From Minisyncoccota bacterium (GTDB taxonomy: Bacteria; Patescibacteriota; Minisyncoccia; Phycocordibacterales; UBA9973), in the NCBI GenBank assembly GCA_041648595.1, contig JBAZOQ010000001.1, positions 14,002 to 78,001 of the forward strand: a stretch of DNA of 64,000 nucleotides, in the 5' to 3' direction. The position numbers were made by a program, and so were the translations under genes. This document shows positions 3,001-56,762 of the stretch, one piece after another; the stretch's first letter is position 1; every line of letters starts with the position of its first letter. A model generated the notes under the pieces. That model was not told the DNA's origin, ran no database searches, and saw only the letters and a program-made list of their open reading frames with translations.

Positions 3001-6000
3001 TACATATACAATTACCGATGATGATAGTACTCCAACAATTGCATTTACCACAACCTCAGGAATTGGAGCAGAAAGCGTAACTCCAGTAAGTATTGGAGTA
3101 ACTCTTTCAGCAGTTTCTGGATTAGATACAACTGTTGCCTATACTCTAACAGGTACAGCCACAGGAAGTGGAACAGACTATACATTAGCAAGTGGAACAG
3201 CAACAATTACAGCTGGACAAACCACTACAAGTATTTCTCTGGTTATTATAGACGATATACTTAGTGAAGTTAGCGAAACTGCTATCTTAACATTATCCAG
3301 TTCAACTAATTCAACTCTCGGAGTTAACACAACTTATACCTATACAATTACAGACAACGACACTGATCCTACAGTAGCATTCACGGCAGCTTCTTCAAAT
3401 GGATTAGAAAGTGTAACTCCAGTAAATCTTGAAGTTTCTATAGCAGCAGCTTCTTCTAAAAACATAACAGTTGGTTATGCAGTTACCGGAGGTACTGCAA
3501 CTTCAGGTGTTGACTATATTCTTGCTTCAGGAACAGCAACAATTACTGCAGGACAAACTACAACAAATATTTCACTCACTGTCATAAATGATACTCTTAA
3601 GGAATCAAATGAAACTGTAATTGTAACTTTATCTACTCCTTCAAATGCAACTTTGGGAACAAATACAGCTCATACTTATACCATTACAGATAATGACACT
3701 TTTCCAACATTAAGTTTCAACGCTACAACAAGTCAAAGTAATGAAGACGTTAACACTGTAGATATTCCTGTATCTATTACATCTATATATCCAGAAAATG
3801 TAACTTTCTCTTATGCTGTTACAAGTGGTACAGCTACAGGTGGATCAGTTGATTATTTACTAGAAAATGGAACAGGTACAATTACAGCAGGTCAAACATC
3901 TACAAATATTCATATAACTGTTTTTGATGATGAGATTTCTGAAAATACAGAAACAATCGTAATAACTATTTCAAATCCAACGAATGCTACTCTTGGAGCT
4001 AATACAATTCATGCTTACTCTATCTTAGATAATGAAATAGCTGTTACAGCAGCAAGTGGTAGTAATATTAAATCAACAAGTGCTCGTATTGTTTGGACGA
4101 CAGCTGATTACACTGATAGTACTATAGAATATGGTACAGTAGCTCCTCCTGGTACAGAAGGGTCTTTGCCATATACTTTGTCTAAGTCAAATTCAGAGAA
4201 AGTATTATCTCATAATATTTATTTAGGAAATTTAACTCCTTCTACAACTTATTATTATAAATTAACTTCAGTTAATTTAGCAGAAGAAACAACAATTTAC
4301 GAATCAGAATTTACAACTACTCCTGGACCTATTATTAGTAATGTTACATCAAGTGGTGCTACTGATATAGGAGTTGTTATCACTTGGACTTCAAATATTC
4401 CTACAACATCTTATGTTAGTTATTCTACTGATGTAGACTTAGCAAGTCCTACATTATCTTCTGTTTCAGAAGAATTAGTTACCGAACATACTGTTACTTT
4501 AACAGGATTAAATTCTGATAGCACTTATTATTATTTAGTGTATGGAGTAGATGCAGATACAAATGTAGGTGAAGATGCAAATGGTGGCAGTTATTATAAT
4601 TTTGCAACAGGGGCAGATCAAACAGCTCCCGTGATTACAGGAGAGATTACTACACCTATCATTACTGCGACTCAAGCTGCTATTTTATGGACAACTAATG
4701 AAGTTGCAAATGGTAAGGTTATGTATGGAACAAGTGCTGATACTTATGATGATGAAACAGATTTGATATCAACACCATTATTAAATCACATAGCGATCAT
4801 TAGTGATTTAACAGCTACGACAAAATATTATTATGTAGTTGTGTCAGCTGATGCAAACGGTAATACCGTAACATCTGATGAAAAAGAATTAACAACAGCT
4901 GAAGTTGAGCAAGTAATTGTAAGTAGCGGTGGAGGTGGTGGAGGTGGAATTATTGGTGTTGCTCAAGAAATTTATAATCTTTTGCTTGCTGAGAATCAAA
5001 AATATATAGCTAAATTTGGTAGTGATACTAATATCCCGGTTATTACAAATATTAAAGTTGATAGTATTACTGCTTTTGGTGCAATTATTTCGTATGAAAC
5101 AAGTGAAGATACAATATCATTTATTGAATATGGTAAAGATACAGATTACGGTTTTATAGCAGCAGATAAAAATTGGTCAAAAAATCATATAATAAAGGTG
5201 AAAGGATTAAATTTAGGTACAGAATATGATTTTAAAATTAGTGCAATGGATAGAACAAATGATTTTGGTTTTTCTGATAATCAGACCTTCACCACTAAAT
5301 TCTTAAGTGAAGATCTTGCTGAATTAAAAAAGATAGAAAACATAGAACAATTCCAAGCAGAAATAGAAGCAACGATAGAATCAATACTTCCATCTCTTGT
5401 TCCACCATTTATTGATAAACCAGTCGTATCTGATATTACAGAGAGTAGTGCAACAGTAACATTCCGTACAAACATTAAATCTTACCCAGTATTAAGTTAT
5501 ACAACTGATGCTAATTATGATAAAACAAAGACTAATCCATATGATGGAGAAATGTCAGATACTTCAGAAAAAAGTGTTTCTCATACAATGTCTCTTATTG
5601 GATTAAAATCTAATACAAAATATCACGTAATGGCAAAAGCATATTCCTTACCTCAAGTTATTGGTAAATCGGAAGACTTTACATTTATAACAGCTGCTTC
5701 AAAGATTCAGGGATCTATTGTTGATGTTAAGAAAGATATGTTTACAGTTATGTGGACTACAGATGAACCTACTTCTTCTATTATTGAATACAAAAATATG
5801 AAAACTGGAAGAATTTCTCGTACTATTGATGATGTTCAAAATAATTCTCATTCAGTAAGAATTGAAAATCTTTCTCCTGGAACTTCTTATCAGGTTAATA
5901 TTTCAGGTATTAACCAAAAAGGTAATACAGTAGAAAGTGGTTCTTCGTTAAATGTTAAGACATCTACCGACAATACTGCACCAGAAATTTTTAATTTGAA

Positions 6001-6355
6001 AGTAAATAGTACTCTTCTTTCTGGACGAACAGATAAAGTTCAAACAATAATTTCTTGGCAGACTGATGAACCTTCGACTTCTTCTGTTTATTATGAAGAA
6101 GGTTCTGGGTCTTTAGAAAAAGCACTTTCGAACAAACAAGAGGAAGTAGAATTTACAAAAAATCACGTTGTTATATTGGCTTCTCTTAAACCAGGAACTG
6201 TTTATAGATTTACAGTAGAATCGATGGATGATGCAAACAATGTATCTAAACCACCAATTCGTACAATAATTACTCCTAAAAAGATAGAATCAATCGTTGA
6301 TGTTATATTTAAAAACTTTAATGAAACATTTAATTTTATAAATAATGTTAGATAG
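2..6355 (+). CDS. Very large secreted or cell-surface repeat protein (5' partial; open from window start). N-terminal region has duplicated SGNIL.TLTRG modules. Six tandem Calx-beta-like repeats of about 110 aa ending in ..HTYTITDNDT. A poly-Gly linker is followed by multiple FN3 / purple-acid-phosphatase-N-like repeats (..TSYVSYSTD..TYYY..).
   Basis: Frame is open from nt 2 with no stop before 173 (the track start is a GTG at 173). Six roughly 330-bp DNA-level tandem repeats at 2021-4035 translate to Calx-beta-like units. Downstream beta-sandwich repeats have the W..TD and YYY motifs typical of FN3/PKD-like domains. Stop at 6355. Confidence 0.8.
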   Translation, partial: TDNVGGSGIGSVKISIKDTDVSVAKWYSGTSFTDVTETYITTTGTNTWSFNSSTVPLVIDHTYLVHIKSIDSALNEESPVQALSFKFVNSPPVVSNVTASMALSGVVTVGYDVTDVESTQTTNSLFYTIGATLNGTITSGATSLTVSDATLFGASGTILIDDEMISYASKSGNILQTLTRGANSTTAFAHTTGALIYLNAASATGTGIGLSNKGTGKVITWTARTDADGYENATETIKVVANDGSAGSMIGSLASSAFIFDAKKPTAVVTFDAGSAGVVDSATITIPMPTDISAVEYLITDGASEADGTTSGWTSITTSTTIPWTFDSGIEIKNLKYQYRDAYGNTTTETITSTLSPILASSFLVQDTSNITIPSYDMYIGWKALVDTTGFSSYKLEYATSTNNVTYGSYSPVGDGMSNPVTNYYVHRNLDSTKFYRYRLGVTGTDGNTSIRAGSFTTAKPDGVQNYGEGGGGSVATASKVENVVPTQNATTKDVTVTYRLTDTSLAQKVSVSYQARVFYNIGITLPSNAYSGGNLTVSDASKLKDSGYIQINNEVIQYTGKTGNILTGLTRGTWPTAPRATRQNLTFFAGTPVWVMATTTTPTAITNTTISTGQDGSITWSTYGEPSLAGSSYTNVGIRVLVHDNQDPGVGPISSQNDYSENGILNTFDLTVPTITFDATSSTGAESVTSVNFGLTLARAYPVNSTVNYTVTGTATGGGVDYTLANGTATITAGSTTTNITATIVNDIIYESSETIIVTISSPTNAILGANTVHTYTITDNDTVSTIAFNTTSSNGLESVTAVTIPVTISAVSGADTTVDYTVTGTATGSGADYTLANGTATITAGSTTTNISLVIVDDAINELNETIIVTLSNPSGATLGTNTAHTYTITDNDTASTIAFTAATLNGLESVTAVTIPVSLSLASYQDITVNYAVTGGTATGSGTDYTLASGVATITAGQTTTNISVTVVNDSLQESSETIIVTLATPSNATLGTNTAHTYTITDDDSTPTIAFTTTSGIGAESVTPVSIGVTLSAVSGLDTTVAYTLTGTATGSGTDYTLASGTATITAGQTTTSISLVIIDDILSEVSETAILTLSSSTNSTLGVNTTYTYTITDNDTDPTVAFTAASSNGLESVTPVNLEVSIAAASSKNITVGYAVTGGTATSGVDYILASGTATITAGQTTTNISLTVINDTLKESNETVIVTLSTPSNATLGTNTAHTYTITDNDTFPTLSFNATTSQSNEDVNTVDIPVSITSIYPENVTFSYAVTSGTATGGSVDYLLENGTGTITAGQTSTNIHITVFDDEISENTETIVITISNPTNATLGANTIHAYSILDNEIAVTAASGSNIKSTSARIVWTTADYTDSTIEYGTVAPPGTEGSLPYTLSKSNSEKVLSHNIYLGNLTPSTTYYYKLTSVNLAEETTIYESEFTTTPGPIISNVTSSGATDIGVVITWTSNIPTTSYVSYSTDVDLASPTLSSVSEELVTEHTVTLTGLNSDSTYYYLVYGVDADTNVGEDANGGSYYNFATGADQTAPVITGEITTPIITATQAAILWTTNEVANGKVMYGTSADTYDDETDLISTPLLNHIAIISDLTATTKYYYVVVSADANGNTVTSDEKELTTAEVEQVIVSSGGGGGGGIIGVAQEIYNLLLAENQKYIAKFGSDTNIPVITNIKVDSITAFGAIISYETSEDTISFIEYGKDTDYGFIAADKNWSKNHIIKVKGLNLGTEYDFKISAMDRTNDFGFSDNQTFTTKFLSEDLAELKKIENIEQFQAEIEATIESILPSLVPPFIDKPVVSDITESSATVTFRTNIKSYPVLSYTTDANYDKTKTNPYDGEMSDTSEKSVSHTMSLIGLKSNTKYHVMAKAYSLPQVIGKSEDFTFITAASKIQGSIVDVKKDMFTVMWTTDEPTSSIIEYKNMKTGRISRTIDDVQNNSHSVRIENLSPGTSYQVNISGINQKGNTVESGSSLNVKTSTDNTAPEIFNLKVNSTLLSGRTDKVQTIISWQTDEPSTSSVYYEEGSGSLEKALSNKQEEVEFTKNHVVILASLKPGTVYRFTVESMDDANNVSKPPIRTIITPKKIESIVDVIFKNFNETFNFINNVR
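2021..4035 (+). repeat. Six tandem coding repeats of about 330 bp (Calx-beta-like units) inside the giant surface protein gene.
   Basis: Each repeat translates to P(T/S)IAF..(S/T)..G.ESVT.V.I.V.....TTV.Y.VTG.ATG.G.DYTLA.GTATITAG.TTT.I.....DD.....E..I.TLS.P..ATLG.NT.HTYTITDNDT. High nucleotide identity between units is visible by eye. Confidence 0.85.
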
Positions 6356-9589: not shown

Positions 9590-11509
9590 ATGGATTTAAA
9601 ACACATACGAAACTTTTCTATCATCGCACATATTGATCATGGTAAAAGTACTTTGGCGGATAGAATGTTAGAAATTACACATACTATTCCTGAGCGTAAA
9701 ATGCGTGATCAAGTACTTGATTCTATGGATCTTGAACGTGAACGTGGAATTACTATTAAAATGCAACCAGTTAGGATGGTCTATCGACCAAAATTTCCAA
9801 TTTCCAATTTCCAATTTCCAATCAATGATCCAATTTCTAATGAAAATTCTAAATTAAAAATTGAAAATTCAAATTCAGAATACATTCTGAATTTGATTGA
9901 CACCCCAGGGCATATAGACTTTTCTTATGAAGTTTCTCGAGCATTAAAAGCAGTAGAGGGCTCTATTTTATTAGTTGATGCGACACAGGGAGTACAAGCT
10001 CAAACTCTTACTACACTTAATATGGCACGTGAGGGAGCCAAAGAAGGGGGCAAACAAATTATTCCAGTACTTTCAAAGATTGATTCACCACTTGCTCGAG
10101 TAGAAGAAGTAAAAAGGGAGGTTATAGAACTCTTAGGTTGTAATTCTGACGAAATATTGATGGTTTCTGGACGTACGGGTGAAGGAGTAGAAAATCTTTT
10201 AAATGAAATAATAAAACGTATTCCACCACCAGTTGAAAGTTATCCACAAGGTGATAATATTTTACGTGCTCTTGTTTTTGATTTTAAATATTCTAATCAC
10301 AAAGGGGTTATAGTTTTTATTAGATTATTAGATGGAAAAGTAAAAAAGGGTGATAATTTACTTTTTTCAGTTTCAGGTGAAAAATTTTGTGCTCTGGAAG
10401 TTGGTACTTTTTCTCCAGAAGAAACACCAAGAGATTTTCTTTTTGCAGGAGATACGGGTTATATTGTTACAGGCATAAAAAGACCAGGTATTGCTTCTGT
10501 TGGAGATACTATTACAAAAGAAAAAAATCCATTACCTGCATTACCTGGATATATGCAACCAATGCCTGTTGTTTGGGCATCTGTTTTTCCAGAAGATGCT
10601 GATGATTTTTTAGAACTGAAATTATCTTTAGGAAAATTAAAATTATCTGATTCATCTTTTTCATACGAAGAAGAATCAAGTGGTTCACTAGGGCGAGGAT
10701 TTAGATGTGGTTTTCTTGGAATGCTGCATTTAGAGATTATCACAGAAAGATTAAGACGAGAATTTAATTTAGAGCTTGTTATAACTACTCCATCTATTAC
10801 TTATGAAGTATTATTGAGAAACCCTTCGACAGGCTCAGGGCAAGCTGGAAAAAGAGTAAAAATTTATTTTCCTTACTTTTTTCCTGAAGATGGAAATATA
10901 GATACAGTATTTGAACCTTGGGTAAAATTGAAAATAATTACTCCAATCAAATATATAGGCAATATTATGCAAATTCTTTTTGACCATGAAGCTGAAATTG
11001 GTGAGACAGATAATTTTGGCAATAATCGTTCTTCTGTATCTGTTAAAATGCCACTTCGTGAACTTATGCGTAATTTTTTCGATGAATTGAAAAGTGTTTC
11101 ATCTGGATATGGATCTATTTCTTATGAAATAGATGAAATGCGTAAAGCAAATGTTACTAGACTTGATGTGTTAGTCGCTGAAGAAGTGGTTCCTGCATTT
11201 TGTAGAGTTGTTTCAAAAAAAAGGGCAGAAGAAGAAGCAGAAAAAATAGTTGAAAAATTACATGATATTTTACCAAGACAAATGTTTGTTACTAAAATTC
11301 AGGGTAAAGTGTTAGGACGCATAGTATCATCTCGTACATTGCAGGCATTTAGTAAAGATGTGACTCAACATATGTATGGTGGAGACGTTACTCGTAAAAA
11401 TAAACTTCGAGATAAACAAAAGAAAGGAAAAAAGAAAATGAAAGAACGTGGAAAAGTGAATATTCCACATAGTGTATTTTTGAAAATGATGCGTGGAGGA
11501 AATGATTAA
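9590..11509 (+). CDS. lepA: Translation elongation factor 4 (LepA). It carries an in-frame (AATTTCC)n low-complexity insertion and an in-frame GC-rich REP-like insertion.
   Basis: N-terminus MDLKHIRNFSIIAHIDHGKSTLADR, NLIDTPGHIDF, and the LepA-specific C-terminal domain. Length 639 aa. Confidence 0.9.
   Translation: MDLKHIRNFSIIAHIDHGKSTLADRMLEITHTIPERKMRDQVLDSMDLERERGITIKMQPVRMVYRPKFPISNFQFPINDPISNENSKLKIENSNSEYILNLIDTPGHIDFSYEVSRALKAVEGSILLVDATQGVQAQTLTTLNMAREGAKEGGKQIIPVLSKIDSPLARVEEVKREVIELLGCNSDEILMVSGRTGEGVENLLNEIIKRIPPPVESYPQGDNILRALVFDFKYSNHKGVIVFIRLLDGKVKKGDNLLFSVSGEKFCALEVGTFSPEETPRDFLFAGDTGYIVTGIKRPGIASVGDTITKEKNPLPALPGYMQPMPVVWASVFPEDADDFLELKLSLGKLKLSDSSFSYEEESSGSLGRGFRCGFLGMLHLEIITERLRREFNLELVITTPSITYEVLLRNPSTGSGQAGKRVKIYFPYFFPEDGNIDTVFEPWVKLKIITPIKYIGNIMQILFDHEAEIGETDNFGNNRSSVSVKMPLRELMRNFFDELKSVSSGYGSISYEIDEMRKANVTRLDVLVAEEVVPAFCRVVSKKRAEEEAEKIVEKLHDILPRQMFVTKIQGKVLGRIVSSRTLQAFSKDVTQHMYGGDVTRKNKLRDKQKKGKKKMKERGKVNIPHSVFLKMMRGGND
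9792..9819 (+). repeat. Perfect heptanucleotide tandem repeat (AATTTCC)x4 inside the lepA coding sequence, followed by degenerate AAATTC-like repeats to about 9890. It is translated as PISNFQFPINDPISNENSKLKIENSNSE.
   Basis: Seen directly. The segment lies between the G1 and G3 (DTPGH) motifs, where canonical LepA has no such segment. Confidence 0.8.
10821..10848 (+). repeat. GC-rich REP-like element (family B: CCTTCGACAGGCTCAGGGCAAGC) inserted in frame in lepA. It is translated as NPSTGSGQAGK.
   Basis: A roughly 25-nt island of about 65% GC in an about 30% GC gene. The same motif occurs in eno (x2) and valS (x2). Confidence 0.7.
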
Positions 11510-11787
11510 TATTAATTTAAGCCCCTATTCAAAAGATTTCTGAGCCTTCGCCCTCGGGGACATAAGGACAGGGGACCAACACGACTCTTAAAATCTTTTA
11601 ATAGTGGCTTAAATTTTACTTTATACTAAATATTGGAGAATAAAGTAAAATCATACTGATTATTATCAATATAACAAGCACTGACCAAATCATCTGGATT
11701 TTCTTTTGATGTTTTTTATTGAAAAACATGAGATAATAATAGCATATAATGAGAAATTTTCAAAAAAATGGAGAAAAGAAACATTTT

Positions 11788-13178: not shown

Positions 13179-14462
13179 ATGAGTGAAAGATTTATAAAAA
13201 ATTTTGATGAATTAGCTACGACTCCAAATCGTAAAATAACATTAGAGATAATGGAATCTGGGTTAAATGCTATTAATACAGCGAAAGTTATTGAATCTTC
13301 TATAAATCTCGTAGGAAAAAATTTATTTATAAAAGAAAAAAGTTTTAATTTATCTCAATATAAAAAAATAAAAGTAATTGGTTTTGGTAAATCTTCTTGT
13401 GACGGTGCACTGGCCTTAGAGAAAATTTTAGGACCTAAAATAAGTGAAGGTGCTGTTATAGGACTTTCGAAGGTTCCATGTAAATATATAGAAACATTTG
13501 CTGGTACACATCCAAAACCATCATTGGTGAATGTAGAAGCTAGTAAAAAAATATATGAAATAGTAAAGGGTTCAACAGAGGATGATCTTATAATTGTTAT
13601 CGTTTCAGGTGGTGGTTCTGCTCTTCTTTGTTATCCAGAAAGTGAATGTACACAAGGTATAAAACTTTATGATCAATTCTTGAAATGTGGGAAAACAATA
13701 TCTGAAATTAATACAGTTAGAAAACATATATCTTCCCTAAAGGGTGGTGGATTAGCTGAATTAGCATATGGAGCAACGGTTATTGGTCTTATTTTTTCAG
13801 ATGTACCAGGAGATGTATTTGAAGATGTCGCTTCTGGTCCAACATATAAAGATAGATCTACCATAAATGATGCTAAACAAATTATATTAAATAATAATTT
13901 AGGAGAGTTTGATTTAATTGAAACTACAAAAGAAGATAAATATTTTGAAAAAGTTTATAATTTTGTTCTTGTTTCAAACAGGACTGCCGTAAAAGCTATG
14001 GAAAAGAAGGCAAAAGAATTTGATTTAAATGTGAATGTTGCTTCAGTTAATCTATATGATGATATAGATAAAGTACTTGAAAAATTATTTGTAGTTCAAA
14101 AAGAAAATTTTATAGTTTTAGCTGCGGGAGAACCTCGTATAATAGTCACAAAAGATGGAGGAAAGGGAGGTAGGAATTTACATATGGCGCTTCGAGCAAT
14201 CAAAAAGAAGATTATTGAAAAAGATTCTGTATTTATATCTTTTGCTTCTGATGGTATGGATAATAGTATTGCCGCAGGAGCAATTGTAGATAAAAATACA
14301 ATAGAAAAAATAGAGAAATTAGGTTTAAATATTGGTGATTATTTAGATCGTTTTGATTCTTATAATATATTTGAAAAGTCAGGTGATTTAATAATGACAG
14401 GTCCTACAGGTGCAAACGTTTCAGATTTGATGATTCTTTTAACAAAAAAAGATGGAAAATAA
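13179..14462 (+). CDS. Glycerate kinase, MOFRL family (glycerate 2-kinase-like).
   Basis: Motifs GFGKSSCDGA, VSGGGSALLCYP, RKHISSLKGGGLAE, AAGEPRIIVTKDGGKGGRNLHMAL and FASDGMDNSIAAGAIVD match the MOFRL/DUF4147 glycerate kinase architecture. Confidence 0.75.
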   Translation: MSERFIKNFDELATTPNRKITLEIMESGLNAINTAKVIESSINLVGKNLFIKEKSFNLSQYKKIKVIGFGKSSCDGALALEKILGPKISEGAVIGLSKVPCKYIETFAGTHPKPSLVNVEASKKIYEIVKGSTEDDLIIVIVSGGGSALLCYPESECTQGIKLYDQFLKCGKTISEINTVRKHISSLKGGGLAELAYGATVIGLIFSDVPGDVFEDVASGPTYKDRSTINDAKQIILNNNLGEFDLIETTKEDKYFEKVYNFVLVSNRTAVKAMEKKAKEFDLNVNVASVNLYDDIDKVLEKLFVVQKENFIVLAAGEPRIIVTKDGGKGGRNLHMALRAIKKKIIEKDSVFISFASDGMDNSIAAGAIVDKNTIEKIEKLGLNIGDYLDRFDSYNIFEKSGDLIMTGPTGANVSDLMILLTKKDGK

Positions 14463-15807
14463 AATTACGAAAATTATTGCAGAAGAAATAAAAGATTCGC
14501 GTGGTAATCCGACTATTAAAGTTACAGTATTTGCTTGCCCGCCTTTGGAGGGTGCAGAATATGTATTTGATAGTTTTTCTGTACCTTCTGGTGCATCTAC
14601 TGGAGCCCATGAAGCACATGAGTTAAGAGACCCCGAACCAGAGCAAGCTCGGTACGGGGCAGGTGATAATGGAAAAGGTGGTATGAAGAAGGCTATTTGG
14701 AATGTAGAAAATATTATTGCACCAGCTTTAATTGGTAAAGATATTTTAAATCAAAAAGAAATTGATAGAATAATGATTGAATTAGATGGAACTGCCAATA
14801 AAGATAATTTAGGAGGTAACTCTATGATAGGTGTAAGTATTGCTTGTGCAAAGACAGCTGCGAAAGTGTCTAATGTGGAAATATTTGAACATTTACGTAC
14901 TTTAATGGAGATAAAACCATCCCTTCGACTAGGCTCAGGGCAAGCTAAGAGGATTCCACATCTTTATATGAATTTGATAAATGGAGGAAAGCATGTCCTT
15001 CGACAAGGCTCAGGGCAAGCAAAGAATGATTTAGTTTTTCAGGAATATCACGTTGTCCCAAATACAGAAGATGCAGTAGAAGCAGTTGAAATTGGAATTA
15101 AAATACAAAATTCTCTTAAAGAAATAATTTTAAAAGAACTAGGAGAAGAGTCTCTTGTATTAGGTGATGAAGGAGGTTTTGCTCCTAAGATAAGTGATAT
15201 TAGAAAACCACTTGAATATTTAAGTAAAGCAATAAAAGAAAATAATTTAGAAGATAAAGTTAGGCTCGCGCTCGATGTAGCTAGTTCTTCTTTTTATAAA
15301 GATGGAAAATATAAAGTTGATGGTAAAGACCCCAAAGGAAAGCAAGCTTCCTACGGGGCAGGAATTTCAAAAGAAGAATTAATGGATATTTATAATTCTT
15401 TAATTACAGAATTTAATTTACTTTCTATTGAAGATCCATTTGATGAAGAAGATTTTGAAAGCTTTAGAAAATTAAAAGAAAATCAAAATAATTTAATAGT
15501 GGTAGGAGATGATTTAACTGTGACAAATAAAGTTCTTTTAAAAGAAGCAATTGAGAAAAATAGTATAAATGCAATGATTATAAAACCAAACCAAATAGGC
15601 ACTTTGACAGAGACACTTGAAACGATGCAATTGGCTCGCTTAAATGGTGTAGAGCTCATAGTCAGCCACAGGAGTGGAGAAACTGAGGATAGTTTTATAG
15701 CTGATTTAGCATATGCTTTTGGATGTTTTGGTCTTAAATCAGGGGCTCCAGAAAAATCTGAAAGAAAAGTAAAATATGATAGGTTAATAAAAATTTCTAA
15801 AATATAG
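14452..15807 (+). CDS. eno: Enolase (phosphopyruvate hydratase) carrying four in-frame GC-rich repeat-element insertions.
   Basis: SGASTGAHEAHELRD, catalytic VGDDLTVTN, IKPNQIGTLTET, SHRSGETED. Inserted segments are PEPEQARYGAG, SLRLGSGQAKR, LRQGSGQAKN and GKQASYGAG. Confidence 0.9.
   Translation: MENKITKIIAEEIKDSRGNPTIKVTVFACPPLEGAEYVFDSFSVPSGASTGAHEAHELRDPEPEQARYGAGDNGKGGMKKAIWNVENIIAPALIGKDILNQKEIDRIMIELDGTANKDNLGGNSMIGVSIACAKTAAKVSNVEIFEHLRTLMEIKPSLRLGSGQAKRIPHLYMNLINGGKHVLRQGSGQAKNDLVFQEYHVVPNTEDAVEAVEIGIKIQNSLKEIILKELGEESLVLGDEGGFAPKISDIRKPLEYLSKAIKENNLEDKVRLALDVASSSFYKDGKYKVDGKDPKGKQASYGAGISKEELMDIYNSLITEFNLLSIEDPFDEEDFESFRKLKENQNNLIVVGDDLTVTNKVLLKEAIEKNSINAMIIKPNQIGTLTETLETMQLARLNGVELIVSHRSGETEDSFIADLAYAFGCFGLKSGAPEKSERKVKYDRLIKISKI
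14631..14663 (+). repeat. GC-rich element family C (CCCCGAACCAGAGCAAGCTCGGTACGGGGCAGG, near-palindromic CCCCG..CGGGG), in frame in eno. Second copy at 15330-15362.
   Basis: Two copies share CCCCRAA..AGCAAGCT..TACGGGGCAGG. Both translate to ..QA(R/S)YGAG. Confidence 0.65.
14925..14949 (+). repeat. GC-rich element family B copy in eno (CCTTCGACTAGGCTCAGGGCAAGC). Another copy at 15000-15024.
   Basis: Same motif as in lepA and valS. Translated as PSLRLGSGQAK and LRQGSGQAK. Confidence 0.7.
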
Positions 15808-19036: not shown

Positions 19037-19059
19037 TTGCGGAAGCAAGACTTCCGCAA
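19037..19059 (+). repeat. REP-1 palindrome TTGCGGAAGCAAGACTTCCGCAA, immediately upstream of tRNA-Gly.
   Basis: Same palindrome family as the three copies around and inside the RAYT gene at 36.3-37.1 kb. Confidence 0.75.
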
Positions 19060-23140: not shown

Positions 23141-23851
23141 TTAATTTTCTACTTCCATTCTTCTTAGTTTTTCAAAAAGTAATATAATAATAATTGTAAC
23201 GACCCAAAGAAAACCTAGTACTCTTAAAAAATAGTTTCCATTATCTTCCATTATAAAAAAATTAAAGGTACTATGCAAGACTATAGCTAATATTATACCC
23301 CCTAAAAGATATAATTTTTTTACAAATTTACCCATAAAAAACGAAAGTCCTAAAGCTATTCCTATGGTACCTGTTGAAACAGCATGGAGTAGCGTAGATC
23401 CTAAAAACCTGAGTTGACCTGTGAGTAGGCCTACCGTAGTTTGGTTAAGTGAGAATGGTTCTATTAGAAACATTGTATTTTCAAGAGCTGCGAATCCTAA
23501 TGCCACAGTAATTAAAAAAATAGGCCAATCTATCGGTTCATCTATACGATTTGTTTTAGAAAGAAGAATTACTACACATAAATATTTTATTAATTCTTCT
23601 ACACTTGCCCAGCCAATAATTTGCCACTCATATGAACTTACAGTATTTTGTATAAATTTTTGGATTGGTATAACAAAAATAACAGAAATCATACCAACAA
23701 AAAACAAAGAAGCAATGAGTCCTTTTGGTTCAGGATTTAAATTGTCTTCTTTTAACCAAAACCAAAGCCAAAGAAGGGCAGGAATAACACCACCTAAAAG
23801 TGCTAAAAATAAAATTTTTGGATCAGTTGTCATTGGGTTTACCCTGAGCAA
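23141..23851 (-). CDS. Polytopic membrane protein, putative PrsW-family intramembrane protease.
   Basis: Multiple TM helices with EELIKY (E-E-x-x-K), FAALENTMF and LLHAVSTG / HSTFNF His motifs resembling PrsW signatures. Confidence 0.45.
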   Translation of the reverse strand: MLRVNPMTTDPKILFLALLGGVIPALLWLWFWLKEDNLNPEPKGLIASLFFVGMISVIFVIPIQKFIQNTVSSYEWQIIGWASVEELIKYLCVVILLSKTNRIDEPIDWPIFLITVALGFAALENTMFLIEPFSLNQTTVGLLTGQLRFLGSTLLHAVSTGTIGIALGLSFFMGKFVKKLYLLGGIILAIVLHSTFNFFIMEDNGNYFLRVLGFLWVVTIIIILLFEKLRRMEVEN

Positions 23852-26027
23852 AGTCGAAGGGCCATTTTTCTACTAATAAAAGTTTTTTGTCTTTTTGTAG
23901 TGGCATCATGGACCATATTTCTTCTGTGATGAATGGTATAAAAGGATGAAGAGCTTTAAGAAGTGTAGTGAGTTGTGAAAGTAATAATACTCGTGCTGAA
24001 ATAGTATTTTTGTTTTCGAGAATTTTTTTCTTTGAACGTTCAATTATTATATCAGCAAAAGTGTGCCAGAAATAATGATAAAGTTTCTCGGCTACAATGT
24101 AGAATTTATATTCGTCCATTTCCTTTGTAATTTCTGTTATTAAATTCTGTAATTCTTTTTCTGATTTTTTATCTTCTTCATCAAGTTCTGTTTCTTTTGT
24201 TGAATCAAAGTCTTTTGTGTTTTCTAATACGAAACGTGCAGCATTCCAGATTTTATTGGTAAATTTGCTGTATGCTTTAACTTTTTGAATATCAAATTTA
24301 CTATCTGCTCCAGGACCTATACCCACAATCATTGACATGCGGAGAGCGTCTGCCCCATATTCATTGATAACTTCTATTGGGTCAATACCATTACCTAGAG
24401 ATTTACTAAATTTTTGTCCTTTCGCATCTCTGAGTATTCCATGAAGATATACCACTTTAAAAGGAATTTCTCCTATTAAATATTGGGACATTAAAATCAT
24501 ACGTGCCACCCAGAAGAATAAAATTTCATAACCAGGATTAATGACACTCGTAGGATGATATGTTTCTAAGTCACTTCCTTTTTTTGGTTTACCATGAGCG
24601 TAGTCGAATGGCCATCCAAGTGTAGAAAAAGTCCAAAGTCCAGAAGAAAACCAAGTATCCAGAGTATCTTCATCTTGAATCCAACCTTCACCCTCTGGTG
24701 TTTCAATTCCACAATATACTTCTTTGTTTTTATACCAAACTGGGATTCTATGTCCATACCAAATTTGTCGTGATATACACCAATCGCGTAGATTTTCTAT
24801 CCAGTTGAAATAAACTTTTTCAAAGTGGTCTGGTAGAATATTTATTTTATTATCTCGTACCGGCTCGAGCATTAATTCTTTAAGTGTTTTATTTCCTCGA
24901 GAGGAGATTTTTTTATTTACATCAATGAACCACTGGAGCATTATTTGTGGTTCTATTATTCCACCAGTTCGTTCAGCCGTCGCAATTCTATTTATATAAT
25001 TTTCATCAATAGAAACAAGTAATCCTTTTGTTTTTAATTTTTCAACAATTTTTTCTCGAGCATCTAAGATTTTCATGCCGGCAAATTCTCCTGCGATGGG
25101 TAAAAGTTTGCTGTATTTATCAATAATTTGTTCTTTGTCTAATTTGTATTTTTCTGCCAATACGAAGTCTTCATGGGAGTGCCAAGGAGTAATGGTCATA
25201 ACCCCAGTGCCGAATTCCATATCGATTATCTCATCCTTGATTATAGTGGCTTCTATTGGGCCATTTATCCATTCTACGGTTAATTTATCGCCATGTTTCC
25301 ATTTACTGTATCTTTCATCTTTTGGATGCATTACGACGTATTTATCACCAAATTTTGTTTCTGGACGAGCGGTACCTATTTCGAAAGGCCCATATTTAAA
25401 AGTATAGAATTTACTCTTTTTTTCTTCATAAACTAACTCATCATCAGATATGACTGTTTGACCCTTTGGATCCCAGTTTACTATTCTATGACCTCTATAA
25501 ATTAAACCGTCGTCGTACATTTTTTTGAAAACAGTGCGAACCGCTAAATTCCTTTTTTCATCAAAAGTAAAAGCTTCTCGTGACCAATCAAGAGATGCAC
25601 CAACTTTACGCAATTGACTTACTATTGTTTTGCGACTATCTGCAACAAATGTGTTTACTCGTTCTAAGAATTTTTCTCGCCCAATATCTTTTTTCTTTAA
25701 TCCTTCTTTTTCTAGAATTTTTGTTATTTTAGAATCTGTTGCAATTGCTGCATGGTCGGTGCCAGGAAGCCAAAGAGTTTTTTCTCCGCGCATACGGTGG
25801 TAACGTATCATTGTATCTTGCATTGAATCTTCAAGCACATGACCTAAATGTAAGACACCAGTGGCATTTGGAGGGGGGAGAACGATAGAAAATTTTGGAG
25901 CATCTTTTTTAATTATGCCTTTCTCAATACATATGTCTGGATTAAAAAAACCGCTCTCTTCCCAGAGTTTATAAATTTTATCTTCTATTTCTTTTGGGTC
26001 GTAGGGTTTTAGCAATCTTTCATCCAT
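23823..26027 (-). CDS. valS: Valyl-tRNA synthetase (class I, HIGH = PPPNATGVLHLGH, KMSKS = KFSKSLGN). Two in-frame GC-rich element insertions (WPFDFAQGKP at the extreme C-terminus and WPFDYAHGKP internally).
   Basis: N-terminus YDPKEIEDKIYKLWEESGFF and catalytic motifs. Length 734 aa (C-terminal coiled-coil domain absent). Confidence 0.85.
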   Translation of the reverse strand: MDERLLKPYDPKEIEDKIYKLWEESGFFNPDICIEKGIIKKDAPKFSIVLPPPNATGVLHLGHVLEDSMQDTMIRYHRMRGEKTLWLPGTDHAAIATDSKITKILEKEGLKKKDIGREKFLERVNTFVADSRKTIVSQLRKVGASLDWSREAFTFDEKRNLAVRTVFKKMYDDGLIYRGHRIVNWDPKGQTVISDDELVYEEKKSKFYTFKYGPFEIGTARPETKFGDKYVVMHPKDERYSKWKHGDKLTVEWINGPIEATIIKDEIIDMEFGTGVMTITPWHSHEDFVLAEKYKLDKEQIIDKYSKLLPIAGEFAGMKILDAREKIVEKLKTKGLLVSIDENYINRIATAERTGGIIEPQIMLQWFIDVNKKISSRGNKTLKELMLEPVRDNKINILPDHFEKVYFNWIENLRDWCISRQIWYGHRIPVWYKNKEVYCGIETPEGEGWIQDEDTLDTWFSSGLWTFSTLGWPFDYAHGKPKKGSDLETYHPTSVINPGYEILFFWVARMILMSQYLIGEIPFKVVYLHGILRDAKGQKFSKSLGNGIDPIEVINEYGADALRMSMIVGIGPGADSKFDIQKVKAYSKFTNKIWNAARFVLENTKDFDSTKETELDEEDKKSEKELQNLITEITKEMDEYKFYIVAEKLYHYFWHTFADIIIERSKKKILENKNTISARVLLLSQLTTLLKALHPFIPFITEEIWSMMPLQKDKKLLLVEKWPFDFAQGKPNDN
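23836..23864 (-). repeat. GC-rich element family B variant (TGGCCCTTCGACTTTGCTCAGGGTAAACC on the minus strand) at the valS 3' end. Second copy at 24587-24615.
   Basis: Both translate to WPFD(F/Y)A(Q/H)GKP. Same CCTTCGAC..GCTCAGGG core as the lepA and eno copies, but read in a different frame. Confidence 0.65.
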
Positions 26028-26176: not shown

Positions 26177-26179
26177 TTG

Positions 26180-27382
26180 TTAGAGGCTAAGGTTTCCTTT
26201 GGCCTTTATGCTCGAGATTTTTGGTACTTTTTTCTTATTTTTTATAAATTGTAGATATCCAGCTACACCTATCATTATTGAATTATCTCCTGTTAATTTT
26301 TTTTCTGGGAAAAGTAATATAGTATTTTTTTCTACAATTTTTTTCATTTGTCTTTGTAAATGTTCATTACAAGATACACCACCAGCTACTATGATTGTTT
26401 TTGCTTTATATTTTTCTTTTGCTTTAATTGTTTTATAAATAAGAGTTTCTACTACAGCATTTTCAAATTCTAGTGCAATAGCTTGTTTTATTTTTTCATT
26501 TTGCCCGCCTGCCTCGTTATGCGAAGCATTTCGGGCAGGTAATATATTAGGATTTTCTTTTTTAAGGTCACGTATTAAATAAAGTACTGCAGTTTTTAAT
26601 CCTGAAAATGAAAAATCAAAATTTTTACTGTAGAGCATAGGGCGGGGAAGAGCGAAGGAAAAACAATCTTTGTGGGGTGTCTCGCAGGCTGACGAGCCGA
26701 GAGGCAGCGCTCCGCGAGCACGCGGAGACAGCGACCCCAGAAAGATTGGTTTTTCTGTAGCTCTTTTTTTTTCAGCTAATTTTGAAATTTCTGGTCCTCC
26801 TGGATAAGGCAGATCCATCATTCTAGCTACTTTGTCATATGCTTCTCCTGCAGCATCATCTAATGTTTGACCAATGATTTTGTATTGTAGCCAATTTTTT
26901 GAGAGTACAAGCTCTGTGTGCCCACCAGAAACGAGAAGAGATAAAATAGGGAATTCTATTTTAGGAATTGTAAAACTACCCTTGCTTTTAGCAAATACAG
27001 ATACTATATGTCCTTCCATGTGATTAACTGGTATAAGTGGTACATCCCATTTTTCTGCAAGTTCTTTTGCAAAAACTATTCCACTCCAAAGTGAAGGTTC
27101 TAGCCCTGGTCCATAAGTGACTGCTATTAGATCAACTGGTTTTTCTTTTTTAGCTAATTTGGATTTTTTAAGAGCTTTTTCTAATAGTATTGGTAAATTT
27201 TTTATATGTTCACGTTTTGCGAGCATAGGGAATACTCCACCATAAGGAGTATGAATTGCTATTTGTGAATTTGAAAAATTAGATAAAATATTAAATGAAG
27301 CAAAACCATTTTTATTGAGATTTGCATCCATTATTGTTATGGCTGTATCGTCACAGCTAGTTTCTATACTTAATATTTTCAT
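26180..27382 (-). CDS. tsaD: tRNA N6-adenosine threonylcarbamoyltransferase TsaD (Kae1/Gcp family) with a roughly 35-aa in-frame GC-rich insertion.
   Basis: MKILSIETSCDDTAITI, NHMEGHI, SGGHTELV, VAGGVSCN. The inserted segment is GSLSPRARGALPLGSSACETPHKDCFSFALPRP. Confidence 0.85.
   Translation of the reverse strand: MKILSIETSCDDTAITIMDANLNKNGFASFNILSNFSNSQIAIHTPYGGVFPMLAKREHIKNLPILLEKALKKSKLAKKEKPVDLIAVTYGPGLEPSLWSGIVFAKELAEKWDVPLIPVNHMEGHIVSVFAKSKGSFTIPKIEFPILSLLVSGGHTELVLSKNWLQYKIIGQTLDDAAGEAYDKVARMMDLPYPGGPEISKLAEKKRATEKPIFLGSLSPRARGALPLGSSACETPHKDCFSFALPRPMLYSKNFDFSFSGLKTAVLYLIRDLKKENPNILPARNASHNEAGGQNEKIKQAIALEFENAVVETLIYKTIKAKEKYKAKTIIVAGGVSCNEHLQRQMKKIVEKNTILLFPEKKLTGDNSIMIGVAGYLQFIKNKKKVPKISSIKAKGNLSL
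26638..26750 (-). repeat. GC-rich palindromic element of about 110 bp (family D core CGCAGGCTGACGAGCCGAG flanked by imperfect inverted repeats CAATCTTTGTGGGGTGTC / GACAGCGACCCCAGAAAGATTG) inserted in frame in tsaD.
   Basis: GC content far above the surrounding coding sequence. Shares its core with the intergenic element at 26097-26116. Confidence 0.65.
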
Positions 27383-36325: not shown

Positions 36326-36347
36326 TTGCGGAAGCAAGGCTTCCGCA
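36326..36347 (+). repeat. REP-1 palindrome TTGCGGAAGCAAGGCTTCCGCA, immediately upstream of the RAYT gene.
   Basis: Perfect 9-bp arms GCGGAAGC/GCTTCCGC around CAAGG. Confidence 0.75.
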
Positions 36348-36361
36348 GTACTATAGTTAGT

Positions 36362-37063
36362 ATGGCGTATAGAAAAGCATCTTTTGTAGAAGGAGAATTT
36401 TATCATATTTATAATAGAGGAAATAGTAAACAAAAAATATTTTTAGATAATCATGATTATGATCGTTTTATAAAATTATTATATCTTTGTAATTCAGAAT
36501 ATAGTATTGATTTTCGTGAAGATATAGTAAGACAGGGAATTAATGCTTGGGATTTTGATCGTGGTGAATCTATAGTTTCAATAGGTGCATGGGTATTAAT
36601 GCCAAATCATTTTCATTTATATTTAAATATAAATCCGCGGAAGCAAGGCTTCCGCAAAGTTCGTATTAATGAAATTACAGAATTTATGCACAAACTTTTG
36701 ACATCTTATTCGAAGTATTTTAATACAAAATATAAACGTACAGGAGGATTATTTGAAGGTAAATTTAAATCAGTTCATATAGAGGATGATAATCAAGCAA
36801 AATATCTTTTTTCTTATATTCATTTGAATCCAGTCAAACTTATAGATAGTAAATGGAAAGAAAATGGAATAAAAAATAAAAAACAAACAAAAGATTTTTT
36901 GAATAAATATATATGGTCAAGTTATTTAGATTATAAAGGAATTACTCGTTCCCCAAATAAAATTTTAAATAAAAAGGCATTTCCAGAATACTTTCGTAAT
37001 ATGAAAGATTTTGATTTTGAAATAGGGGAGTGGCTTAATTTTTCGGATTCTGACTTAAATTAA
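36362..37063 (+). CDS. IS200/IS605-family HUH Y1 transposase, REP-associated tyrosine transposase (RAYT)-like. It contains an in-frame REP-1 copy (PRKQGFRK).
   Basis: N-terminal FVEGEFYHIYNRGN, HUH motif MPNHFHLYL, catalytic Tyr region KYLFSYIHLNPVK. Flanked on both sides by REP-1 palindromes. ATG 36362 is preferred over the track's TTG start at 36326, which lies inside the REP. Confidence 0.75.
   Translation: MAYRKASFVEGEFYHIYNRGNSKQKIFLDNHDYDRFIKLLYLCNSEYSIDFREDIVRQGINAWDFDRGESIVSIGAWVLMPNHFHLYLNINPRKQGFRKVRINEITEFMHKLLTSYSKYFNTKYKRTGGLFEGKFKSVHIEDDNQAKYLFSYIHLNPVKLIDSKWKENGIKNKKQTKDFLNKYIWSSYLDYKGITRSPNKILNKKAFPEYFRNMKDFDFEIGEWLNFSDSDLN
36635..36657 (+). repeat. REP-1 palindrome CCGCGGAAGCAAGGCTTCCGCAA inserted in frame within the RAYT gene.
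   Basis: Translated as NPRKQGFRKV directly after the HUH motif. Confidence 0.7.
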
Positions 37064-37096: not shown

Positions 37097-37119
37097 TTGC
37101 GGAAGCCAGGCTTCCGCAA
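37097..37119 (+). repeat. REP-1 palindrome TTGCGGAAGCCAGGCTTCCGCAA, immediately downstream of the RAYT gene.
   Basis: Read directly. Confidence 0.75.
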
Positions 37120-54956: not shown

Positions 54957-56762
54957 GTGAAAGAAGAAATACTAAAATTTTTTAATGGGGAAGTAGAAGA
55001 TAGCGAAGAAACACTTTTAAAATATTCGCGTGATGCGAGTATTTTTGAATTACGACCAAAGCTTGTTCTTTTCCCTTTGGACTCAAAAGATGTTCAGAAT
55101 TTAGTGAAATGGGTAAGTGAAAATAAAGATAAATATGCCGATCCTGAAAAAAATAAAGATTATAAAAATCTTTCCATTACTTGCAGATGCGCAGGAACAG
55201 ATATGTCAGGTGGTGCTATAGGTGAATCTTTGATTTTGGATTTCACTCGGCATATGAATAAGTTGATACGACCACCTCGCCCTTTGGGCACTCCTCCTTC
55301 AAAAGGAGGAGAAGATTTTTCTCCCCTCCTTGGTGAGGAGGGGGCTGGGGGTGGTGATTATTCCATCACTGTGCAGCCCGGTATGTTTTATCGAGATTTT
55401 GAAAAAATAACTTTAGAAAAAGGACTTATTTTGCCTTGTTACACTGCATCAAAGAGTTTGAATGCTATGGGTGGAATGTTTGGTAATAATTCGGCTGGAG
55501 AGCGAACTCTTAAATATGGGAAAACAGAAGATTATATTTTAGAAACAAAGATAGTTTTTTCTGATGGTAATGAATATATTATAAAACCATTAACTCAAAA
55601 TGAATTAACTAAAAAAATAATGCAGTCAAATTTTGAGAGTGAAATTTATAAAAATATTTATAATTTAATAAATGAAAATAAAGAAGAAATAAAAAATGCC
55701 AAACCAGCGGTCAGTAAAAATTCTGCAGGATATTATATTTGGAATGTAATTGGAGATTTTTTTGATTTAAACAAACTTTTAGTTGGTTCTCAAGGCACAT
55801 TGGGTATAGCTACCGAAATTACTTTTAAACTTGTTAAAAATCCTAAACATTCTAAACTTGTAGTTATTTTTGTTAATGGATTAGAACCATTGGGTCGTCT
55901 TGTGGATGAAATTTTACAATTTAAACCAGAAACACTTGAGACATATGATGATAAAACTATAAAATTAGCAGTTAGATTTTTTCCAGATTTTCTTAAAAAT
56001 AAAGGTCTTCTTGGTATGATAAAATTTATGTGGAGTTTTTTACCTGAATTGAAAATGATGTTCAATAGTCTTTTTGGGGGTGGTTTCCCAAAATTAATTA
56101 TTCTTGCAGAGTTTGCTGGTGAAGATGAATCTATGATAGACAGGCAATGTATTTCTTTAAAAGAAAAGATTTCCGCCAAAGGCGGACCAGCCTCAGGCTG
56201 GAAAAATATAAATGTTCATATTACAAAGTCAGAGATAGAAGCAAATAAATATTGGGATATTAGAAGAGAAAGTTTTTCTTTACTACGTAAACATGTCAAA
56301 GGTCTTCATACTGCTCCATTTATAGATGATATTATAGTTCGTCCAGAATTTTTGCCAAAATTTATTCCTGAGCTTAATCAAATTTTTTCAAAATATGATT
56401 TGAATTATACAATAGCAGGACATATAGGAGATGGTAATCTTCACGTCATTCCTCTTATGGATTTTAAACATCCTGATACACCTAAAATAATAATAGAACT
56501 TGGAGAGAAAGTGTATGATCTTATTATAAAATATCATGGTTCTATTACAGCAGAACACAATGATGGTATAGTTCGTACTTTATATTTAGAAAAAATGTAC
56601 GGGAAAAAGATGGTTGCAATTTTTGGAGAAATAAAAAAAATATTTGATTTGAAAAATATTTTTAATCCAGGTAAAAAAACATTTTCAGAAGATGGTGGTG
56701 GAACAAAAGAATATATGATTTCACATATTGCACTGGAACATAGCGTAATACATAAAGTTTAA
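54957..56762 (+). CDS. FAD-linked oxidase (PCMH-type FAD-binding domain plus FAD-oxidase C-terminal domain; glycolate oxidase GlcD / D-lactate dehydrogenase-like) with a roughly 30-aa GC-rich insertion.
   Basis: FAD-binding N-terminus and C-terminal GHIGDGNLHV. The insertion is RPPRPLGTPPSKGGEDFSPLLGEEGAGGGD. Confidence 0.7.
   Translation: MKEEILKFFNGEVEDSEETLLKYSRDASIFELRPKLVLFPLDSKDVQNLVKWVSENKDKYADPEKNKDYKNLSITCRCAGTDMSGGAIGESLILDFTRHMNKLIRPPRPLGTPPSKGGEDFSPLLGEEGAGGGDYSITVQPGMFYRDFEKITLEKGLILPCYTASKSLNAMGGMFGNNSAGERTLKYGKTEDYILETKIVFSDGNEYIIKPLTQNELTKKIMQSNFESEIYKNIYNLINENKEEIKNAKPAVSKNSAGYYIWNVIGDFFDLNKLLVGSQGTLGIATEITFKLVKNPKHSKLVVIFVNGLEPLGRLVDEILQFKPETLETYDDKTIKLAVRFFPDFLKNKGLLGMIKFMWSFLPELKMMFNSLFGGGFPKLIILAEFAGEDESMIDRQCISLKEKISAKGGPASGWKNINVHITKSEIEANKYWDIRRESFSLLRKHVKGLHTAPFIDDIIVRPEFLPKFIPELNQIFSKYDLNYTIAGHIGDGNLHVIPLMDFKHPDTPKIIIELGEKVYDLIIKYHGSITAEHNDGIVRTLYLEKMYGKKMVAIFGEIKKIFDLKNIFNPGKKTFSEDGGGTKEYMISHIALEHSVIHKV
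55271..55368 (+). repeat. GC-rich insertion of about 100 bp in the FAD oxidase gene, containing nested palindromes CTCCTCCTT-caa-AAGGAGGAG and CCCCTCC-ttggtga-GGAGGGG.
   Basis: Read directly. More than 60% GC against about 30% in the gene. Confidence 0.65.

Follow-up and report, generated by a model that had tools for sequence, protein, structure and literature searches.

In-frame GC-rich repeats in the enolase gene of a Candidatus Paceibacterota genome, probably REP-type elements tolerated as protein loops

The enolase gene (eno) of the bacterium considered here is interrupted by short GC-rich segments and thereby raises a simple question: are these segments native parts of the enzyme, or interspersed repeats that were inserted in frame, and by what route did they arrive? 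We examined a 64,000-nt stretch of contig JBAZOQ010000001.1 (positions 14,002 to 78,001, forward strand; hereafter the window) from an ultra-small Minisyncoccota bacterium of the Candidate Phyla Radiation (CPR). The window has a GC content of ~31% and a housekeeping gene content (lepA, eno, PEP synthase, ftsZ/ftsA, the mraZ-rsmH-PBP cluster, gatB, ATP synthase and others). The original prediction, made from the sequence alone, had described four insertions of two repeat families (B and C) in eno and had likened them to the Rickettsia palindromic elements (RPE). According to our analysis five such segments are present, and they probably represent selfish GC-rich interspersed repeats of ~20-36 nt, of the RPE type or that of the repetitive extragenic palindromic (REP) sequences, that are tolerated as loops.

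That the host gene encodes enolase is indicated by matches of its product to enolases in the PDB (E=1e-94) and by the Pfam domains Enolase_N and Enolase_C on a 100% identical protein (P0001) encoded by a 146-kb contig of a Ca. Paceibacterota metagenome-assembled genome. The nearest relatives are Nomurabacteria/Paceibacterota enolases, and those sharing 70-89% identity range from 403 to 451 aa, the commonest length being near 405. Insertions were called by DNA alignment to a syntenic ortholog with empty sites (L001/P0011; 405 aa, 88% amino acid identity), which revealed five gap-clean in-frame insertions of 21, 33, 24, 24 and 33 nt (Table 1) and one further length difference of a single codon. 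The GC content of the inserts is 58-67%, compared with 31% for the genome, and no duplicated flanks were found at any of six resolved insertion sites. Gaps at all five places are likewise seen in solved enolases (2pa6, 9x4f), and neither the enolases of unrelated lineages nor the closest orthologs have native residues at the positions of the inserts. The motif GGCTCAGGGCAAGC occurs three times in the window and TACGGGGCAGG twice, with 0.10 occurrences expected for each, and none of 100 shuffles reached these counts. The four predicted insertions are thus real, and a fifth, the 21-nt insertion 1, had been overlooked. The positions given for family C were exact, while both family B copies begin and end a few nucleotides before the 14925-14949 and 15000-15024 given originally. 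The translations of the inserts stood as first written, and the catalytic motifs SGASTG, GGKH, QEY, GDEGG, LDVA, SIEDP, GDDL, IKPNQ, SHRSGET and LKSG were indeed all found in frame. P0001 carries the NCBI label 'enolase C-terminal domain-like protein' instead of phosphopyruvate hydratase, a name that probably came about because the inserts push the protein under the enolase family cutoff.

The repeat motifs are not confined to eno: family B recurs in lepA and in a class-I aminoacyl-tRNA synthetase gene, and family C in other genes and in intergenic clusters. Family B has the core CCCTTCGAC-N1-4-GCTCAGGRCAAGC. Its site in lepA is empty in two related loci (GAGAAA/TGG in L002 and L003) and holds a decayed copy at the identical position in another (L015), and at the 3' end of the synthetase gene the sequence TGG/TAA of L002 is replaced in the window by TGG-CCCTTCGACTTTGCTCAGGG-TAA. 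In eno this DNA is read as LRxGSGQA, in lepA as PSTGSGQA and in the synthetase gene as PFDxAQGK, which argues for an element at the DNA level and not for a protein motif. As the terminal 20-nt copy in the synthetase gene does no more than displace the stop codon, the lengths in multiples of three inside genes are imposed by selection and are not a property of the element. About 20 convincing copies of family B were found in 1.28 Mb of related CPR loci, all of them in long open reading frames (ORFs), all in sense orientation, and distributed over all three frames. The three best copies of the window agree with one another in 23/24 nt but share only 19-22/24 nt with those that occupy these very positions in other genomes; this greater likeness within the window suggests recent amplification or homogenisation within the genome.

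Family B is not specific to the Paceibacteria lineage, since it is also present in plasmids of other groups and in viral contigs. Sphingobium megaplasmids contain its first 22 nt 6-14 times, arranged as inverted pairs where genes converge, and cyanobacterial plasmids contain this stretch as well. A tblastn search for RAYT-like genes (REP-associated tyrosine transposases, described below) located them in 11 plasmid records, to which the Sphingobium records with family B do not belong. The pattern CCTTCGACN{2,4}YTCAGGRCAAGC was found in 50 stretches of IMG/VR contigs with 36-70% GC, in every frame and also antisense, with the half-sites sometimes tandemly repeated. The core is thus common to Alphaproteobacteria, Cyanobacteria and viral contigs. 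One Sphingobium plasmid (L134, 1440-1530) contains the core as inverted pairs between convergent genes, and outside the CPR the halves CCTTCGACNC and GCTCAGGGCAAGCC can iterate in tandem within ORFs (IMG/VR loci L128, L132 and L116).

The description of the elements as palindromic applies to family C and not to family B, for which no hairpin was obtained (fold z +0.96 and -0.53). As DNA, the two family C copies of eno fold with -9.4 kcal/mol (z -3.5) and -6.1 kcal/mol (z -1.8), and the stem changes of copy 2 are compensatory with respect to copy 1. Nine loci provided 14 distinct copies, which together support a bulged stem of 11 bp; 94.8% of the cells pair, compared with 81.6% in shuffles (none of 500 reached the observed value). 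Compensatory double changes affect 5 of the 11 pairs, and pairing drops to 24-46% when the register is slid. GTAG or GTAC is present in the stem of many copies (CCCCAGTAGC...), on the antisense strand in copy 2 of the window, while neither GTAG nor CGTC was seen in families B or D (family D is described below). Outside eno, family C is found in other genes (sense and antisense) and in intergenic clusters, with three copies within 350 nt in L168, and its strict pattern had zero matches in viral contigs. Family C has the anatomy of a REP element. Two further families are represented: family A (insertion 1) forms a perfect hairpin in L006 (CCCGCCTCTGGCGGG) and folds weakly in the window (z -0.96), and family G, a hairpin in tsaD, recurs as a 39-nt insertion (PARNASGIADAGG) in the enolase of other Paceibacteria (L008, P0025, P0082). 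Decayed copies that have drifted towards AT exist as well, for example in lepA of L015 and in eno of L018 and L031.

The distribution of the inserts was compared among 120 Paceibacteria enolases, in which ten insertion sites were recognised in total. At least one insert is present in 70 of the proteins, and the remaining 50, nearest relatives included, have none. One insert was counted in 45 proteins, two in 17, three in 6, four in 1 and five in 1, which makes the window protein the extreme. Insertion 1 was found in just 15 homologues, and an insert at the exact position of insertion 4 in 22, diverged forms included. When mapped onto a neighbour-joining tree built from the core columns, the sites require at least nearly as many changes as there are carriers (19 for 22, 10 for 10, 14 for 30), and presence and absence of the inserts is thus polymorphic and not tree-like. 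A nearest-neighbour test gave a clear vertical signal at site 2 and a few rare sites only; at site 2 the nearest neighbour was also a carrier at a frequency of 0.63, against 0.24 expected. The site-2 insertion, held by family C copy 1 in the window, is linked to a distinct downstream flank (GGMKKAIWNVE), and 30-33 of its 33 nt agree between lineages that share 71-80% identity over the flanking 40 codons. The proteins P0057 and P0093 are 98.5% identical and differ by a 21-nt GC hairpin (ACCTGCCTGCCGGCAAGGCAG). Their genes are 100% identical over the first 155 nt and visibly diverged thereafter, with substitutions clustered at the junctions of the insert, and this mosaic structure indicates that recombination contributes. 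For the neighbouring genes we relied on an analysis of ortholog gaps in place of a clustering of GC-rich islands, which mostly returned orthologous conserved coding segments instead of repeats. No comparable inserts were found by this analysis in PEP synthase, glycerate kinase and 2-hydroxyacid dehydrogenase of the window. The background amounts to ~0.2-0.6 insertions per 1000 aa, a rough genome-by-genome figure in which shadow ORFs are mixed in and enolase is poorly scored.

The expectation that the inserts map to loops was borne out by an AlphaFold model of the window enolase (mean predicted local distance difference test, pLDDT, of 77.7), in which they lie between secondary-structure elements. 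Three stretches with a pLDDT <50 (residues 48-75, 183-191 and 292-302) hold three of the inserts. Insertion 1 is located in the turn joining two N-domain strands, insertion 3 between helix 144-152 and strand 170-177, and insertion 5 in a loop whose length also varies among reference enolases. The remaining two adjoin catalytic loops: insertion 2 (pLDDT <50) lies right behind the active-site loop SGASTG...ELRD, and insertion 4, which occupies the low-confidence residues 183-191, follows immediately on the GGKH motif. The inserts are probably read as short surface loops rich in Gly, Ser, Pro and Gln. Judged from the intact motifs and the loop locations in the model, the enzyme would tolerate them and remain active, an assumption that is helped by the 22 of 120 homologues with an insert at the GGKH site. 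We infer that the inserts are neutral.

A candidate for the mobilising enzyme is encoded in the window itself. The only transposase-like gene among otherwise housekeeping ORFs codes for a protein resembling the REP-associated tyrosine transposases (RAYT). Its best NCBIfam match is REP_Tyr_transpos (E=2.3e-12; 47 bits, under the equivalog cutoff of 80), the Pfam domain Y1_Tnp matches with E=4e-4, and the HUH and Tyr motifs are kept in 21 homologues. The name RayT is given to homologues by JGI. The top 30 fold matches of a low-confidence model (pLDDT 50) are all IS200/IS605 TnpA proteins or the E. coli RAYT-hairpin complex 4er8, and we take them as supporting evidence. Patescibacteria contain very many members of this family: 7,891 of 8,000 scored candidates reach E ≤ 0.001. 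The gene is accompanied by family D, a 19-nt hairpin (GCGGAAGC(A/C)AGGCTTCCGC) that stands upstream, downstream and in frame inside the ORF and has 1-2 dispersed copies in the 64 kb of the window. The same layout of three hairpins, with an internal peptide RKxxFRK, is found in most of 83 RAYT loci (L136-L138 and 80 metagenome loci; L136-L218). Each locus has hairpins that are identical to one another but differ from those of other loci, which argues strongly, at the level of sequence, for a co-variation of enzyme and substrate. The copy inside the ORF might serve in autoregulation or mimic the substrate. Further elements of this kind were noticed in the window: gatB contains an in-frame hairpin at 52192-52225 (CTTGGAGGCAAGGCCTCCAAG; -12 kcal/mol), and rsmH an in-frame element at 38010-38037, a diverged copy of the family D type. 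The cognate hairpins of other RAYT subgroups (L181, L190-L218) are similar to both.

Table 1. Enolase gene, inserted elements and RAYT-like locus of the window (positions are those of the window).
Feature	Position	Strand	Description
eno (enolase)	14452..15807	+	451 aa; ORF; hosts five in-frame insertions
Insertion 1, family A	14531..14551	+	21 nt TTGCTTGCCCGCCTTTGGAGG; peptide ACPPLEG; gap in empty-site ortholog
Insertion 2, family C copy 1	14631..14663	+	33-nt hairpin CCCCGAACCAGAGCAAGCTCGGTACGGGGCAGG; peptide PEPEQARYGAG; clean 33-nt gap
Insertion 3, family B	14921..14944 (boundary ±1)	+	24 nt CCCTTCGACTAGGCTCAGGGCAAG; peptide (S)LRLGSGQA; clean 24-nt gap
Insertion 4, family B	14996..15019 (boundary ±1)	+	24 nt TCCTTCGACAAGGCTCAGGGCAAG; peptide VLRQGSGQ; clean 24-nt gap
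Insertion 5, family C copy 2	15330..15362	+	33-nt hairpin CCCCAAAGGAAAGCAAGCTTCCTACGGGGCAGG; peptide PKGKQASYGAG; clean 33-nt gap
Family B copy in lepA	10822..10845	+	24 nt; other frame, PSTGSGQA
Family B copy, 3' end of class-I aminoacyl-tRNA synthetase gene	23842..23861	-	20 nt; read PFDFAQGKP...; stop codon displaced
Decayed family B-like insertion, same synthetase gene	24588..24611	-	24 nt; PFDYAHGK; column filled in 6% of 17 orthologs
Family G hairpin in tsaD	26504..26539	-	LPARNASHNEAGGQ; sequence comparison
RAYT-like HUH/Y1 transposase gene	36362..37063	+	Motifs NHFHLY (HUH) and YIHLNP (Tyr); single copy
Family D hairpin upstream of RAYT gene	36328..36346	+	GCGGAAGCAAGGCTTCCGC; -10.6 kcal/mol, z -6.9
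Family D hairpin in frame inside RAYT ORF	36637..36655	+	RKQGFRK; just after HUH motif
Family D hairpin downstream of RAYT gene	37099..37117	+	GCGGAAGCCAGGCTTCCGC; -11.8 kcal/mol, z -5.7
Dispersed family D hairpin, intergenic, before tRNA-Gly	19039..19057	+	

In the explanation that we favour, the elements entered eno in an AT-rich Ca. Paceibacterota genome, and insertions into such an essential gene survive only where the frame is kept, no stop codon is introduced and the location is a loop. The survivors of this filter would accordingly be translated as tolerated surface loops. The families are probably active, or homogenised, within genomes now or in the recent past, and they decay towards AT elsewhere. 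As the most likely mechanism, hairpin families such as C and D would be moved as single-stranded DNA by a RAYT/IS200-type HUH/Y1 enzyme like that of the window, whose chemistry leaves no target-site duplication and makes precise excision possible. Short-tract homologous recombination could then spread filled and empty alleles among lineages. The parts assigned here to HUH mobilisation, to precise excision and to recombination are what we infer from the patterns described above.

Several points weigh against this explanation. Related DNA was sampled within ±6-10 kb around eno or RAYT genes, its coding context was read from ORFs, and translation of the inserts is presumed from sequence. Family B, which forms no hairpin, would be an atypical HUH substrate. 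The presumed connection between the transposase and the enolase elements is one of resemblance, in that family C copy 2 has an inner hairpin (GGAAAGCAAGCTTCC) closely similar to the core of family D (GGAAGCAAGGCTTCC). Neither family B nor family C flanks the RAYT gene in any of the 83 loci, and the cognate hairpins of these loci are rare elsewhere (4 extra copies in ~0.3 Mb). Simple random transposition does not predict that one family occupies the identical nucleotide position in lineages that are not sisters. The explanation does not account for the insertion load of enolase, which is far above that of the neighbouring genes. Finally, PEPEQARYGAG is better conserved than its flanks, and this loop could have acquired a function.

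It is conceivable, though unlikely, that enolase is the preferred target of a site-directed process. Elements of 21-39 nt would then be repeatedly inserted and precisely removed at about ten fixed codon positions, in different lineages, by an HUH transposase acting on the single-stranded DNA of a highly transcribed gene, and family B would be a pan-bacterial mobile unit that passes between phyla and phages and can be read in all three sense frames. If true, this would amount to a targeted exchange of 'loop cassettes' in proteins, and not to random selfish insertion followed by purifying selection.

We also regard it as rather improbable that the inserts are imported DNA, that is, short fragments of widespread GC-rich repeats, chiefly of family B, which CPR cells would have taken up, patched into the chromosome by microhomology-mediated short-patch illegitimate recombination and subsequently transferred between lineages by homologous recombination. 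Such an origin would agree with the family B core in Sphingobium megaplasmids, cyanobacterial plasmids and the 50 IMG/VR stretches, with the lack of target-site duplications, with the mosaic P0057/P0093 gene and its substitutions clustering beside the indel, with the distinct flank tied to the site-2 insertion, and with a family B that offers an HUH enzyme no hairpin. However, the element keeps the same 24-nt boundaries in each of four independent genes, all ~20 CPR copies of family B are in sense to the host gene, and the near identity of the window copies, which are less like those of other genomes, fits an internal source better.

There is little likelihood that the inserts are adaptive loops, selected because they alter the enolase surface or the dynamics of its catalytic loops (an episymbiont might use this in moonlighting or to attach to its host), with their repeat nature being incidental. 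The conservation of PEPEQARYGAG and of its DNA above that of the flanking gene, the two insertions adjoining catalytic loops, the strong enrichment of enolase over neighbouring genes and the vertical signal at site 2 would all be in keeping with selection. On the other hand, the same DNA occurs in other frames in unrelated genes, family C is also found in intergenic clusters, copies decay towards AT in some lineages, the AlphaFold loops are predicted to be disordered, and the insert-free homologues (50 of 120) include the nearest relatives.

Removal of the inserts during expression, be it by hairpin-dependent translational bypassing as in the yeast mitochondrial 'byp' elements and T4 gene 60 or by RNA excision, appears very improbable. 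GC-rich hairpins in the coding sequences of an AT-rich genome do resemble byp elements, and one insert lies directly behind a catalytic histidine, where added residues might do harm. Yet all copies inside genes are stop-free multiples of three, a signature of read-through and not of skipping, with the 20-nt copy placed at a gene end. Furthermore, no matched take-off and landing codons flank the elements, family B is unstructured, Rfam at gathering thresholds detected no intron or ribozyme family in the window, and a diverged insert at the GGKH site is tolerated in the 22 homologues mentioned above. RNA splicing, archaeal-type or other, and ribozymes were rejected too: the tRNAs are ordinary and the only Rfam hits at gathering thresholds, and the best protein matches are to Ca. 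Paceibacterota/Nomurabacteria. An origin from rRNA fragments was also discarded, as the resemblance of family B to the 5' end of 16S and of the family C tail to the 341F region consists of 9-10 nt matches, of which we estimate ~0.1-0.8 per element by chance. An assembly or sequencing artefact (chimeric reads, adapters), which a universal artefactual sequence in very different genomes could have mimicked for family B, is refuted by independent recurrence: the same insertions are found with lineage-specific substitutions and decay in many assemblies (NCBI, JGI, ENA, Logan), the reading frame is kept, and family B is present in finished plasmids of cultured bacteria.

The interpretation as REP/RPE-type repeats invites comparison with known systems. 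The Rickettsia palindromic elements, the classic case, reportedly described by Ogata et al. in 2000 and 2002, are likewise polymorphic in-frame repeats of several families in the housekeeping genes of a small AT-rich genome, where they form translated surface segments. RPE-1 is ~100-150 nt long, whereas the elements described here have 21-36 nt, occur in an unrelated CPR lineage and include the non-palindromic family B. They also differ in that five copies share one 1.3-kb gene, the same sites are reused across lineages and a RAYT-like gene is present. With the REP/REPIN-RAYT systems, which are said to have been reported by Nunvar in 2010 and by Bertels & Rainey in 2011, the window shares a single-copy Y1/HUH gene flanked by its own hairpins, and hairpin and enzyme differ together between genomes. 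Unlike in those systems, the cognate hairpins are low-copy in the sampled DNA, a third copy lies inside the ORF, and families B and C are not cognate to any examined locus. The GC clusters and byps of yeast mitochondria are likewise short, mobile GC-rich hairpins that invade coding sequence in an AT-rich background. Ribosomes skip byps, and these are free to break the frame, whereas here frame and freedom from stops are kept, so that read-through is indicated. DNA uptake sequences (DUS; also uptake signal sequences, USS) have cores of 9-12 nt, occur about once per kb in both orientations, arise by substitution and spread by recombination in competent bacteria. Family B resembles them as a short conserved motif in genes, read in several frames, but is a 24-nt insertion at a density of ~1 per 13 kb in the window, sense-only in the CPR loci and found across phyla. 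Miniature inverted-repeat transposable elements were rejected in view of the lacking target-site duplications at the six resolved sites and the element size of 20-36 nt. What is unusual about the present elements is that they are very short, that one family is unstructured and crosses phyla, and that one gene is a recurrent target.

A further precedent is provided by the GTAG- and CGTC-tagged REPs, hairpins of 20-40 nt that are mostly intergenic, encode short peptides where they are intragenic and have been proposed to be linked to RAYT (Di Nocera et al., 2013; PMC3733652). They were found inside ORFs in several phyla, with two or more in some genes, and RPE-4 and RPE-6 of Rickettsia are themselves CGTC REPs (PMC3733652). 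Common to both sets are short hairpins between and inside genes, with several per gene. No Patescibacteria are included in that study (PMC3733652), however, and most copies seen here near eno are intragenic. Literature searches combining the CPR with palindromic or RAYT terms retrieved no prior description, and those with the DNA motif and peptide strings returned nothing relevant. As intragenic REPs are known and a report from the CPR was not found, we consider the lineage and the families as new, but not the phenomenon. The elements are therefore 'previously uncharacterised' with respect to lineage and families, in-frame REPs outside Rickettsia having already been described (PMC3733652). The proposed analogy to RPE holds for in-frame, repeated and loop-located elements, but not wholly for their independence, given the family B core in other phyla, the REP-like family C and the RAYT-like gene in the window.

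Taken as REP/RPE-type repeats, the inserts would extend the in-frame colonisation of essential genes to the CPR, where it seems to be common (70 of 120 enolases). They distort automatic annotation and inflate the apparent novelty of CPR proteins. Filled and empty alleles represent natural experiments on the tolerance of loop insertions, even beside catalytic loops, and the RAYT genes with their three co-varying hairpins offer many natural pairs of enzyme and substrate for the study of HUH specificity. Complete CPR genomes could answer how family B came to be shared across phyla and why enolase is a hotspot.

Further GC-rich elements were observed elsewhere in the window. An in-frame block of ~120 nt in tsaD (minus strand, 26628-26745) has an 85-nt structured core that recurs in L011, L014, L015 and L031, and a partial copy of it (26094-26124) lies in a perfect palindrome of ~110 nt (26067-26178) between the synthetase gene and tsaD. 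The block has no match in Rfam, and a hammerhead-like motif (CTGACGAG) at 26100 and 26700 was rejected on account of an incomplete core and the lack of an Rfam match. A conserved GC-rich intergenic element located 3' of lepA (11533-11589) is present in six related loci, had no Rfam match either, and may represent a small RNA or leader of a new type. Rfam searches at lax thresholds around two other GC-rich elements gave nothing relevant. The FAD_binding_4 domain encoded by an FAD-linked oxidase gene (54957..56762) is split by ~100 nt of composite GC-rich insertion (55265-55364), the first half of which reappears in reverse complement between genes, upstream of atpF (62210-62280). A different kind of indel is represented in lepA by an AT-rich low-complexity insertion of 78 nt (9788-9865; PKFPISNFQFPINDPISNENSKLKIE), which is present in less than half of the orthologs. 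The ORF at 173-6355 (2060 aa) contains Calx-beta and fibronectin-III repeats and probably encodes a surface protein; its GC-rich stretches look like native Gly/Thr-rich repeats and not like inserted elements. Lastly, the window encodes a member of the RmuC family (45069-46127, minus strand). RmuC proteins are implicated in keeping recombination at short inverted repeats in check, which may be of relevance for a genome rich in hairpin repeats.

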